A stretch of DNA of 64,000 nucleotides from Eledone cirrhosa (lineage: Eukaryota). Positions within the stretch are counted from its first letter, which is position 1; each line of letters opens with the position of its first letter. Where the stretch lies: assembly GCA_964016885.1 (NCBI GenBank), contig OZ024740.1, positions 388,368,001 through 388,432,000 on the forward strand, written 5' to 3'. The notes under the pieces were generated by a model that was not told the DNA's origin, ran no database searches, and saw only the letters and a program-made list of their open reading frames with translations. This document shows, in pieces, positions 19,789 through 64,000 of the stretch. A program made the translations under genes and the position numbers.

Positions 19789-20158
19789 TATATATATATA
19801 TATATATATATATATATATATATATATATATATATATATAAATGGAAAAAATAAAACGAAATTTCATTTCTCTCTCTTAGTACGGCTGTTACTTAAATAT
19901 AAGTATGTATACATACATACATATATGTATACAGACGTACAGTAGTATGTATATATATACATACATGCATATATATATATATATATATATATATATATAT
20001 ATATATATATATATATATATATATATATATATATATGTTACGTATGGATTTACCGAGCATTTATTATAATGCTCGGTTTGTTTGTAAACAAACATCCCAA
20101 ATTAAACCGTACAGTGTTTAGCAACCATCGTTGCCCTTTTGTTCAACACTGACAAAGG

Positions 20159-20203
20159 AACGATGTACTGGTTTCAAGCTTATTAGCTATCGTCAGCACC
20201 GTA
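20159..20203 (-). ncRNA. Type I hammerhead ribozyme
   Basis: Minus strand: acggtg-CTGACGA-tagctaataagctt-GAAA-ccagt-A-catcgt. Confidence 0.75.
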
Positions 20204-20703
20204 TACCTTCCTGCCAGATGATTGAACGTCTGAAAGTATATACATTCCTTACGCATATTAACGGCTGAGCAGCCTAATTTGCATATCGAGTGGGTTAATC
20301 GGCCGGACGCACCGAAAACGATAAATGGAAAAAATGAAACGAAATTTCATTTCTCACTCTTAGTACGGCTGTTACTTAAATATAAGTATGTATACGTACA
20401 TACATATATGTATACAGACGTACAGCAGTATGTATATATATATACATACATGCACACATATATATATATATATATATATGTACGTATGGATTTGCCGAAC
20501 AATTATTATAATGCTCGGTTTGTTTGTAAACAAACATCCGGAATTAAGCCATACAGTGAAATTTCGTTTCATTTTTTCCATTTATCGTTTTCAGCACGCC
20601 CGGCCGATTAACTCACTCGATATGCAAATTAGGCTGCTCAGCTGTTAATATGCATAAGGAAAGTATATACTTTCAGACGTTCAATCATCTGGCAGGAAGG
20701 TAT

Positions 20704-20746
20704 ACGGTGCTGGCGATAGCTAATAAGCTTGAAACTAGTACATCGT
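20704..20746 (+). ncRNA. Type I hammerhead, core mutated (CTGGCGA), probably inactive
   Basis: acggtg-CTGGCGA-tagctaataagctt-GAAA-ctagt-A-catcgt. Confidence 0.6.
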
Positions 20747-22770
20747 TCCTTTGTCAGTGTTGAACAAAAGGGCAACGATGGTTGCTAAACACTGTACGGC
20801 TTAATTCGGGTTGTTTGTTTACAAACAAACCGAGCATTATAATAAGTGCTCGGTATATATATATGTGTGCATGTATGTATATATATACATACTACTGTAC
20901 GTCTGTATACATATATGTATATACGTATACATACTTATATATATATATATATATATATATATATATATATATATATATATATATATATATATATGGAGTG
21001 CACCATTGAAAACGCTGGGCGAATACAGGCCGAAACCACTATGCATTGCGGCTGGCATTTTACTTTCCTTTATAAATATACGGAATATTGCCTGTGAACG
21101 TTAACTGGAAAAGCGCAACACTGTTCTGAATAGATGAATTGAATGTCATATGTATTTCTTCCTTCACTTTTATTATTAGCGGTATTTTTTCAAACCTTTA
21201 TCTAACGTAGCTTTATGATTATCAACATAAATGAGAGTCAGGCAACAAAACACTTCTTTGCGACCTCATGACAAGCACTGACAAAATCGGCAATGCAAGA
21301 TAATTCCAAGAAAAATGAAACTCTCGGTATAATTTAGCAGTTCGATATCAGAATGGAGATCACTGTGGGGAACAGTTGTATTAGGTTTATTATGGTTTTA
21401 AATGTATGGACATAAGTATAATGCAATATTATACTATCAGAATAGCAAGCGCTGAAAATATTAATGTCTTACTCATATGTTCTGTAAACATTAAATATAA
21501 GCCTGAACTGCGCACTACTATATTTAATATATATTTTTTAAATGAGCAGTATCATAAATAATCAGGATGAATAGATTCATAGGGAAATTGGGGACACTAT
21601 CTAAAACAGAGAGAAGCCTATGTTTCAAAATATTGCTGTATGATTATCATTGAAAATATTTCACCTTAGGTTAATCTTATTGGAAGAGGGAAATTGATTT
21701 TCCTGCTTTGATCTTTAGAATTGCATTACTTTCTGATCTTATGAAGGAACATATTTCAATAAAAAAGGAAATGATAAAGCTATTTTCGATATTATATTAA
21801 AACTTTTGTTGTTATATTTCAATTATGCTGACTATTTTTCTTAGATAAATTTAGCAGCTTTAAAATTCCTGAACATCAGCTTTTCAATTTATTAAATATG
21901 TAATATATTCTTTGCTTCTCAGAAGGACAAAGTCATATCACTTACCCCTCACGGACAGTATCATTTCACGCAGTGTCTAGTGCCTTTTAGAAATGTCTCA
22001 ACATACAAACGTTATATTCACTCAGCTCTAAAACGCAATGCAAACATTATCATTATTTACCGACGAAGGATGGTGATTTCCAAGAAATCACCATTTCTGT
22101 GACTGACACAAAAAATGTTTCTTTCCTCGGTGGATTTACATCTACGCCAGAAATTACTCCTATTTTCCTTGACTAAACGTTAAAATTCGCTTGCAGTCAC
22201 CTTCTTAAAATATAGTACTTTTGTTTCCACTCAAAAATATCCACATAATAACTAAACTAATAAAACGAACCTGACACACACAGATAGAACAAGTACACAA
22301 CTAGTGACAAATAAATAAACGTATAAATAAATAAACAAACATATGTATTGTATTAAAATAGATAAGGAAAATAGAAACACACAGAAACACACACACGAAT
22401 CCGCGGATATAATGCATGTGCAGCCCAATTACACAGCTCACAAAAGCAAGATTGTGTCGGACAGAACAAAGGGAAAGACACAAAATAACAACAAAAGTAG
22501 TTATTGAAGAGGTCACAGAATGTGTGACGAATGACAATCAATTAAACAACTATCCGATTATTAAACTAACCGACTCAGAAGAGAAAACCGACAGGTACGT
22601 TTTATTGACAGCATGACCCTCCCAAAGTATAACTATATGTTTCAATACACATTTTCAGATAAGAAAGTTTGCAAAACAAATATAAGAAAGAAGTAGACAC
22701 ACACACGTGCTCACACACACACACACACACACACACACACACACACACACACACATATATATATATATAT

Positions 22771-62661: not shown

Positions 62662-62752
62662 TGAATTGGAAAAAAAAAAAAAAAAAAAAAAAGTAATAAT
62701 AATAGTAATAATAATAATAATAATAATAATACTACACTATTAATAATTATTA

Positions 62753-63035
62753 ATGCACTCGTGCAATGCCTGTGCGTGACGAATATTTTTAAAGTGAGGA
62801 AAGACTGTGCACTGAACCAATCCCACTCTCTGAGCGACAGTAGCTATAACCCGAAAAGAAGAAAAGGTCAACATCATCGGTAACTACTGAGCCGCAGGTT
62901 TTATATCGGAGTTAACCCAGTTTCCTGAGATGCCTTCTCCTAGAAGAATACCCTGACATGGGCTAGGGGTTCTTCACTCCCAGTGGTTTAACTGCGCGAT
63001 CGGGCATCCAGCCCGATTATTTCTATGTCCCCGCG
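62753..63035 (-). mobile_element. Interspersed repeat homologous to 22980-23200
   Basis: Shared gcaatgcctgtgc, ccactctct, aaaagaagaa.a.gtcaacatcat and ccttctcctagaa. Confidence 0.55.
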
Positions 63036-63627
63036 CAAAAAAAAAAAAAAAAAAAAAAAATTACTTATTGACACTTATACGTACGACATACACACACACG
63101 CATACATATGCGTAGACACAGCAACACTCATACACACAACAAACACACACACACGCTACTCTACTCACTTACACGCACACACACACATATATATATATAT
63201 ATTACCGTCATTACTGATACAAGATTACCAGATTATGTCAACTGTTGACTTTCAAGAGTTTGTATAGTTGAAGCCGATCGTATTACAGTCCAGTATTACT
63301 ATAATTGCTTTACAGCATAGAGTTATGGCTCTCCACGGAGTCAACAAAAGAGAGTACCAGTGATGCGCTGGACAGTCGCTGGATCCGTGCCAAAAGCAGA
63401 AAAATTATTATTAAAGTTGTTCTTAAGGCCAGGTCGCTGGTGATGGTGATGGCGACGGCGGTGGTGGTGGTGGTGGCAGTTGATGTTGTTGTTCTGTTGT
63501 GTGTGTGTGTGTGTGTGTGTGTGTGTGTGTGTGTGTGTGTGTTTTGTTATTTTGAGTTTTTTTTTTTATATATATATATATATATATATATACACACATA
63601 TATATATATATATATATATATATATAT

Positions 63628-64000
63628 AAACGGAAAAAATGAAACGAAATTTCATTTCTCACTCTTAGTATGGCTGTTACTTAAATATAAGTATGTATAC
63701 GTACATACATATATGTATACAGACGTACAGTAGTATTATATATATATACATACATGCACACATATATATATGTACGTATGAATTCACCGAACATTTATTA
63801 TAATGCTCGGTATGTTTGTAAACAAACATCCCGAATTAAGCCGTACAGTGTCTAACAACCATCGTTGCTCATTTGTTCAACACTGACAAAGGAACGCTAT
63901 ACTAGTTTCAAGCTTATTAGCTATCGTCAGCAACGTATACCTTCCTGCAAGATGATTGAACGTCTGAAAGTATATACTTTCCTTATGCATATTAACGGCT
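63628..64000 (-). mobile_element. Another copy of the hammerhead-bearing unit (19840-type subfamily), cut by the window end
   Basis: Near-identical to 20323-20555 and 20100-20265. Confidence 0.88.
63893..63936 (-). ncRNA. Type I hammerhead ribozyme
   Basis: Minus strand: acgttg-CTGACGA-tagctaataagctt-GAAA-ctagt-A-tagcgt. Confidence 0.75.

Follow-up and report, generated by a model that had tools for sequence, protein, structure and literature searches.

A hammerhead repeat inserted at (TA)n tracts

The window analysed here, a 64-kb stretch of contig OZ024740.1 from Eledone cirrhosa (positions 388,368,001 to 388,432,000), consists of animal DNA rich in AT, includes 106 (TA)n runs of at least 16 nt, and harbours at three loci a non-coding repeat, R1, as well as coding Penelope-like elements (PLEs). 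R1 units measure 484-571 bp and occur in up to 6.9 tandem copies; the longest ATG-initiated open reading frame (ORF) across three units is 78/109 aa. On the minus strand of full units we found a hammerhead ribozyme motif made up of CUGANGA, a stem II of 4 bp, GAAA, a stem III that is minimal and the cleavage triplet GUA, with a ~7-bp stem I closing the structure. The core is intact in seven of the eight R1 copies aligned, bearing out an earlier first-pass annotation that had described hammerhead arrays in this stretch, with the proviso that Rfam gave no match to R1 at gathering level and HH9 as the sole match below it (18.5 bits, E 0.061). Folding z-scores of the R1 hammerheads are unremarkable (-1.4 to +0.8). 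R1 RNA would be expected to self-cleave at the predicted hammerhead, and by sequence criteria R1 is a non-LTR retrozyme. No long terminal repeat (LTR) pair was seen at R1, in a search that did not extend to a tRNA primer site or polypurine tract. Two subfamilies can be distinguished, loci 1 and 3 belonging together and locus 2 differing by 16-19%.

Locus 1 comprises a tailed arm of 1.5 units on the minus strand (19838..20558; hammerhead core 20166-20196), with a long 3' end in (TA)n at 19838, and an inverted arm of 0.9 unit on the plus strand (20557..20940) with a short 3' end at 20940, its hammerhead (20710-20740) carrying a core change (CTGGCGA); the junction microhomology is TG, and a one-sided tail of 59 nt (19838..19896, minus strand) lies between the two fixed ends. 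In locus 2 the tailed arm spans 6.9 units with seven consecutive hammerheads (48532..52166, minus strand; unit starts at 48534, 49035, 49548, 50077, 50648, 51161 and 51724), followed after a GC microhomology by an inverted arm of ~1.5 units (52165..52893, plus strand; hammerhead 52609-52639) whose short end is at 52893, and the tail measures 61 nt (48532..48592, minus strand). Locus 3 (63626..64000, minus strand; hammerhead 63900-63930) has its long end at 63626 and is cut by the window end.

Comparison of the loci revealed that the long end falls at one identical site of the unit (…TTAT followed by (AT)n) in 3/3 cases, the last unit base being 19838, 48532 and 63626. The first-pass annotation had placed the starts at 19840, 48534 and 63628, which sit within a 3-nt overlap between unit and (TA)n; its claims that all three loci begin at one point of the unit right after (TA)n, and that this point is a 3' end and not the cleavage site, both hold, as the site is shared and lies 270-345 nt downstream of hammerhead cleavage in ribozyme sense. 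The threefold coincidence has a chance probability of 5e-6 if ends are uniform and of 4e-4 if they are confined to the 52 TA-compatible sites of the unit. The loci represent independent insertions, since their flanks are non-homologous save for the 68-nt end of a different element and microsatellite, which also rules out segmental duplication.

The inverted arms, too, stop at one site (20940 and 52893, after CTTAYAT; 2/2), positioned 59-61 nt before the long end and the same in two subfamilies 16-19% apart. Each complete insertion (loci 1 and 2) consists of two 5'-truncated copies placed head to head, one of them tailed. The inversion junctions (20557-20558 and 52165-52166) fall at different unit positions with 2-nt microhomology each, matching the variable inverted ends annotated earlier at ~20557 and ~52165, and a 36-nt deletion is found near 52129, just before the second junction. 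Because the two ends differ by the 59-61-nt tail, the arms are not terminal inverted repeats (TIRs). Identical inverted termini, poly(A) and a CTRR end, the types of terminus that the annotation had said would point to another mechanism, were looked for at five R1 ends and found at none.

Two fixed ends delimiting a one-sided tail are the published signature of PLE insertion, and PLE-driven insertion of R1 is therefore likely. In vitro, a purified PLE enzyme (Poseidon from Anolis) was shown to cut both target strands and to extend each from its own internal start site, the pair of sites bounding a tail termed unique to PLEs (Frangieh 2024, PMC11167929). The second fixed end and the tail, the feature that the first-pass account missed, strengthen its proposal of PLE target-primed insertion from a fixed internal site.

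Long inverted arms resemble foldback elements, and the window also holds remnants that we take to be those of LINEs (long interspersed nuclear elements) and of Helitron-like elements. Nevertheless, insertion of R1 by a foldback/TIR DNA transposon, a Helitron or a LINE with twin priming is highly improbable: the ends differ by the tail and have no TIRs, poly(A) or CTRR, and BLAST finds the R1 unit nowhere else in the window. Moreover, twin priming would give variable outer ends, whereas those of R1 are fixed.

Beyond the window, scans with R1 patterns returned no locus in metagenome contigs and none in viral contigs. Parts of the unit were present in 20 of the 24 sequencing runs listed, with no RNA run among the listed holders. 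The number of R1-bearing short contigs per run, which is not a copy number, was 4,763 for run X1, which may come from the source sample, 2 for run X4 and 0 for two Hi-C runs. Among the 7 R1 loose ends listed (101 others being unlisted) there was no TA end; as the stretch 49597-49665 was skipped as repeat, this count does not bear on where R1 ends.

Templates and growth of the R1 tandems

The window contains a second non-coding hammerhead family, element C (55194..55750), with a 325-bp unit, two head-to-head arms of about 210 and 350 nt (the right arm being 1.07 units), hammerheads at 55352-55383 (minus) and 55600-55631 (plus), a 39-nt tail and TTGG microhomology at the junction. The short end lies within or next to the loop of a palindromic hairpin (6-8 bp) both in R1 (19890-19903) and in C (55225-55243). 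All six complete arms of R1 and C cross the hammerhead cleavage site, none ends there and four exceed one unit; a linear hammerhead-to-hammerhead monomer is excluded as sole template, barring template jumps, because all six arms are too long for it. As template for R1, the DNA is compatible both with a circle and with a multimer that was not fully cleaved.

Locus 2 records how an array changed after insertion. Units 2 and 4 have five derived changes in common and units 3 and 5 three, indicating that a two-unit block was duplicated later to give units 2-3 and 4-5; conversion is suggested by two additional sites in common. A simple assembly doubling of these units was ruled out, as units 2 and 4 differ at 5 sites and TA lengths differ. 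By contrast, the direct units as a group share no derived change relative to the inverted arm, and their lineages carry 1-9 changes each, which argues for at least five direct units early in the history of the locus. Where the two overlap, none of the 4 variants of the second direct unit occurs in the second inverted unit. This pattern fits a homogeneous template, with about five direct units present when the locus was inserted or shortly thereafter. Units of locus 1 differ from each other by 5-7%, the same distance as to locus 3. The claim of the first-pass annotation that copying went beyond one round is upheld by the four arms that exceed one unit and the six that cross the cleavage site, but not for the entire array of locus 2, part of which stems from the later duplication.

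It is nearly an even prospect, falling somewhat short of one, that the arms were copied not from a circle but from a linear transcript of a source array, multimeric and not fully cleaved. In five of the six complete arms a single hammerhead is crossed, as RNA of dimer length, no less than a circle, would permit, and two such arms stop ~48 and ~57 nt before the next cleavage site (a post hoc observation). R1 also has a minimal stem III, of the kind reported to cleave well only as a dimer. Unprocessed RNA is the main PLE substrate in vitro, and ribozyme mutants are without effect on insertion (PMC11167929). Against a linear multimer, the retrozyme RNAs of other animals are largely circular according to the available text of PMC7229834, and the second inverted unit of locus 2 lacks the 4 direct-unit variants, so that a heterogeneous source array did not template both arms of this locus.

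A different history, in which R1 is the pseudo-LTR (pLTR) of an unseen coding PLE that left short 5'-truncated stubs, with tandems forming later by unequal crossover, is improbable. The two-unit duplication in locus 2 and the many truncated PLE stubs in the window are in line with it, and crossover is the route preferred in the available text of Li et al. 2026 (bioRxiv 10.64898/2026.07.22.740005). However, the tail reads directly into the next unit in both orientations and subfamilies, with no ORF beyond the short ones given above, and the direct units share no derived change relative to the inverted arm. In addition, three arms (the two of locus 2 and the tailed one of locus 1) are longer than one unit, so that the inserted R1 RNA was already multimeric or circular.

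Coding PLEs and a paired hairpin in Hydra-clade leaders

Using self-BLAST and a scan of 27 segments bounded by TA runs, we detected eight further two-armed insertions in the window: the coding elements A and B, the non-coding element C and the stubs D-H. A one-sided tail, 33-139 nt long, is present in all 10 two-armed insertions aligned (A-H and R1 loci 1 and 2). Element and TA run overlap by at least 2 nt at 8 of 11 independent scorable ends (0.236 expected, p=8e-4; the count leaves out H, the remnant P3 described below, and the long ends of B and D-H, which have no read-through copy). Comparison of 11 tails by minimum free energy yielded no common fold.

Element A (33511..38698, plus strand) has an inverted arm (33511-~34760), an ORF in two frames (34848-37071, break near 35200), a hammerhead (38509-38556), a short end at the equivalent of 38609 and a long end at 38698 that delimit an 89-nt tail, and a 40-nt direct repeat near 34760. 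A 30-nt duplication (34713-34772) lies exactly at its inversion junction and resembles a repeated template switch. Element B (30067..44358, plus strand) is 5'-truncated, with an ORF at 39266-40495, a 67-nt tail and hammerheads at 44231-44259 (plus) and 30099-30127 (minus), and elements F and A sit inside its inverted arm. Its 3' region includes ~3 kb of (TA/CA)n, copied into the inverted arm before F and A arrived. A short inverted repeat (cccggaataacg…cgttattccggg) flanks the TA run at its long end (44346-44390), and the true end of B may be earlier than 44358. A third coding relative, P3 (47160..48381, plus strand), is a degraded, 5'-truncated Hydra-like PLE remnant that terminates at a D-type short end, and neither an inverted arm nor a complete hammerhead was found for it.

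Elements A and B encode a reverse transcriptase (RT) followed by a C-terminal GIY-YIG domain, with the motifs RW(K/R), DKT, CxCX5C, CxxC and CxH, which were read off the ORFs and an alignment against the description and Fig. S1 rows of Craig 2021; B has lost the N-terminal motifs by truncation. We assign A and B to the Hydra clade by these motifs alone; Pfam gave a sub-threshold GIY-YIG match for B and none for A, and a PDB profile search gave 0 matches. The two arms of A, like those of B, are 0.6-0.8% apart. With A in two frames and B and P3 truncated, no autonomous PLE copy is shown. The layout that the first-pass annotation had ascribed to the coding PLEs (inverted arm, hammerhead, direct repeat and TA target) is complete in A, but B lacks the direct repeat and P3 the arm and a complete hammerhead.

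Leaders of the Hydra clade contain a conserved bulged hairpin, GCUC…GAGCAC, in two copies between the hammerhead and the start codon. We analysed 78 metagenome loci drawn from the best 80 of 446 confirmed ones. The hammerhead pattern is present in 54 of the 69 with enough 3' sequence, and GCTC-N-GAGC(A/G)C occurs downstream of the hammerhead in 30 of 39 distinct segments, compared to 0.17 expected from shuffles; 5 of the 9 segments without it run into TA before its usual place. The two copies are 55-74 nt apart (n=27, median 63). Among 79 motifs the first pair above the 2-nt bulge is C-G in 51, U-A in 24 and G-C in 1, and the full hairpin descriptor fits only 37. Insertion ends lie 2-11 nt before the hairpin in 9 of 10 scorable cases (5/6 in the loci, where 19 ends are TA-adjacent and 6 scorable by a read-through copy, and 4/4 in the window). 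The motif is also visible in two consensus sequences of Craig 2021, where the start of Hydra-1_Obim, as displayed, departs from the canonical form.

In the window, the hairpin takes an ACTC/GAGT form in elements A, B and D, found 5 nt after the short end in A (38615..38636, plus strand, ACTC…GAGTGC), B (44297..44317, plus strand) and D (19636-19661, minus strand), while the second copy of A (34808..34827, plus strand, GCTC…GAGCGC) lies ~6 nt after the position of the long end. A covariance model constructed with no sequence from the window ranked these four copies as its top four hits (E 9e-5 to 0.17). The hairpin is absent from element C and from elements E-H. It may serve to dock the enzyme. 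Two of the metagenome loci (L021 and L058) contain full-length 2.4-kb Hydra units in head-to-tail tandem at >99% identity. Near other Hydra elements, pairs of hammerhead patterns are spaced 137-778 nt apart (L027, 2354-2931; L038, 2262-2399; L062), possibly representing short derivatives.

Are the local Hydra-clade families (A, B and D/P3) then the ones that mobilise R1? They use the same (TA)n target, as do nearly all Hydra families, the R1 tail length is within the 55-74-nt spacing of the Hydra hairpins, the arms of A and B, at 0.6-0.8%, are near locus 2 in age, and a D-type end adjoins the long end of R1 loci 1 and 2. We nonetheless judge mobilisation by these families unlikely: R1 lacks the hairpin that follows nine of ten scorable Hydra ends, the covariance model that retrieves the four window copies finds nothing in R1, the families have no homology with R1, and the distance from cleavage site to end is 215-345 nt in R1 as opposed to 32-142 nt in A and B. 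Families A, B and D are therefore probably not the R1 partner, and as R1 is devoid of the Hydra hairpin, this partner is probably another PLE. The autonomous/non-autonomous pair that the first-pass annotation saw within this locus thus finds no support, with no intact coding copy, no shared sequence and no Hydra hairpin in R1, whereas its suggestion that R1 and the PLE families share a terminal structure is correct for the two-ended layout with a tail, though not for sequence or hairpin. The D-type short ends stand tail to tail with the R1 long ends, at 19747-19789 in the same TA run as locus 1 and at 48340-48381, ~150 nt from locus 2, which probably reflects repeated use of one TA tract.

R1 has candidate end hairpins of its own. 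A 4-5-bp hairpin with a 7-nt loop follows each R1 end, 3 and 5 nt downstream (identified post hoc), and in the locus-2 unit examined only those two of 137 possible hairpins have GCC in the 7-nt loop; the GCC of the long-end loop is lost in several other R1 copies. When the two subfamilies are compared, 1 of 18 stem positions and 7 of 14 loop positions are different (Fisher p=0.01), and in element C a similar loop follows the long end.

As to the remaining features of the window, the hairpin stubs comprise D (19587..19789, 80-nt tail), E (29745..29996, 80-nt one-sided tail in (TA)n), F (32756..33192, 33-40-nt tail in (TA)n), G (53523..53969, 139-nt tail in (TA)n) and the older H (338..950, 46-nt tail), whose short end runs into (CT)n. 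A weak 121-nt palindrome (71% identity) is seen at 24415-24529. Several tandem LINE copies, presumably L1/Tx1-like, occupy 3186-18477; one of their ORFs is gag-like and another encodes an endonuclease-RT (1089 aa, 6615-9884). A 1206-aa endonuclease-RT ORF at 59116-62736 and its broken relative at 45039-47199 are, we assume, RTE-like, and the fragmented Rep/helicase-like ORFs at 25958-28979 are taken to be Helitron-like.

A model for R1 insertion and its place among known systems

These data lead us to a likely model in which R1 is a retrozyme inserted in trans by a PLE RT and GIY-YIG endonuclease through two-site priming and head-to-head joining. The PLE enzyme would cut both strands of a (TA)n tract, and each free end would prime reverse transcription at one of two fixed internal sites 59-61 nt apart, probably aided by 2-5 nt of AU pairing, an overlap that is seen at the ends. 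The cDNAs would extend toward the RNA 5' end, passing at least one uncleaved hammerhead (a crossing seen in every complete arm), which implies a template longer than the linear monomer, then stop at variable points and be joined head to head by 2-4-nt microhomology. The tail would equal the spacing of the two start sites, and arrays can later grow by ordinary unequal exchange, as seen for two units in locus 2.

Several points weigh against this model. The R1 evidence comes from three loci; the R1 tail measures 59-61 nt compared to the 30-40 nt described for Penelope-type elements; and PLE start sites lack homology to the target, unlike the short R1 overlap (Frangieh 2024, PMC11167929). Furthermore, searches with the pattern, the descriptor and the covariance model all failed to find the Hydra hairpin after either R1 end, and R1 gave no alignment above shuffles with the non-coding parts of the coding PLEs (best shuffled p 0.085-0.1). 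Neither R1 nor C or D had a BLAST match in the 78 Hydra loci.

An extension of the model, which we put forward tentatively and with the balance against it, is that two leader hairpins dock the halves of a dimeric RT-endonuclease, each half priming just upstream on one strand of the (TA)n double cut. Hydra elements would use GCUC…GAGCAC copies ~63 nt apart, while R1 would present its own pair to another PLE lineage and be copied round a circle, the docking hairpin acting as a code by which each retrozyme is matched with its partner.

PLE mobilisation and tandem cDNA from a circle were proposed for animal retrozymes in 2020 (PMC7229834, in the text available), and for PLEs the copying of a circle beyond one unit had been put forward in 2014. 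More recently, retrozymes were argued to be non-autonomous PLE derivatives on grounds of co-occurrence and pLTR homology, with tandems by local amplification being favoured (Li, Clavereau & Pollet 2026, bioRxiv 10.64898/2026.07.22.740005, in its available text). In the accessible portions of these two papers, non-LTR retrozymes are, like R1, non-coding tandems of a few hundred bp with one type I hammerhead per unit, low GC and PLEs present. R1 differs in being longer than the 150-450 bp of PMC7229834, although within the range of 51-972 of Li et al., and in having no pLTR homology in the window; the same portions contain no mapped ends, inverted arms, tail or (TA)n target. No paper mapping retrozyme ends emerged from our literature search, which missed most subscription papers and two supplements.

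PLEs with an endonuclease (EN+) show partial tandems, an inverted copy, a tail and a (TA)n bias, as far as the available text of Craig 2021 (PMC8557442) describes them. From what is accessible of this and related accounts (PMC8557442, PMC11167929, PMC3846280), they share with R1 the partial tandems, the inverted 5'-truncated copy, the one-sided tail, the microsatellite target and start sites downstream of the hammerhead, and pLTR sequences are enough for PLE mobilisation in trans. R1, unlike them, is non-coding, has a tail of 59-61 instead of 30-40 nt and ends that overlap the target by 2-5 nt. The Hydra clade, in the available text of PMC8557442, resembles elements A and B in protein motifs, hammerhead and (TA)n target, while the paired GCUC…GAGCAC hairpin, which R1 lacks, goes unmentioned in that portion of the account. 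Non-autonomous Chlamys elements such as MRC1 (PMC8557442, same portion) are, like R1, non-autonomous PLE partners with head-to-tail multicopy insertions; their 3' ends resemble those of their autonomous families and most have no hammerhead, whereas R1 has a hammerhead and no partner was found for it.

Until now, the case for what mobilises animal retrozymes has been built on co-occurrence and homology, whereas two fixed ends and a tail provide a footprint of the mechanism, open to scoring in any assembly. Likewise, the paired Hydra hairpin offers a concrete, mutable cis element for the unexplained tail and inversion of PLEs, and a possible way to pair non-coding elements with enzymes, which here speaks against the obvious neighbours. 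The general model of PLE-driven retrozyme mobilisation is already in print; what this analysis adds is the end-level footprint of a retrozyme and the paired hairpin of Hydra elements.

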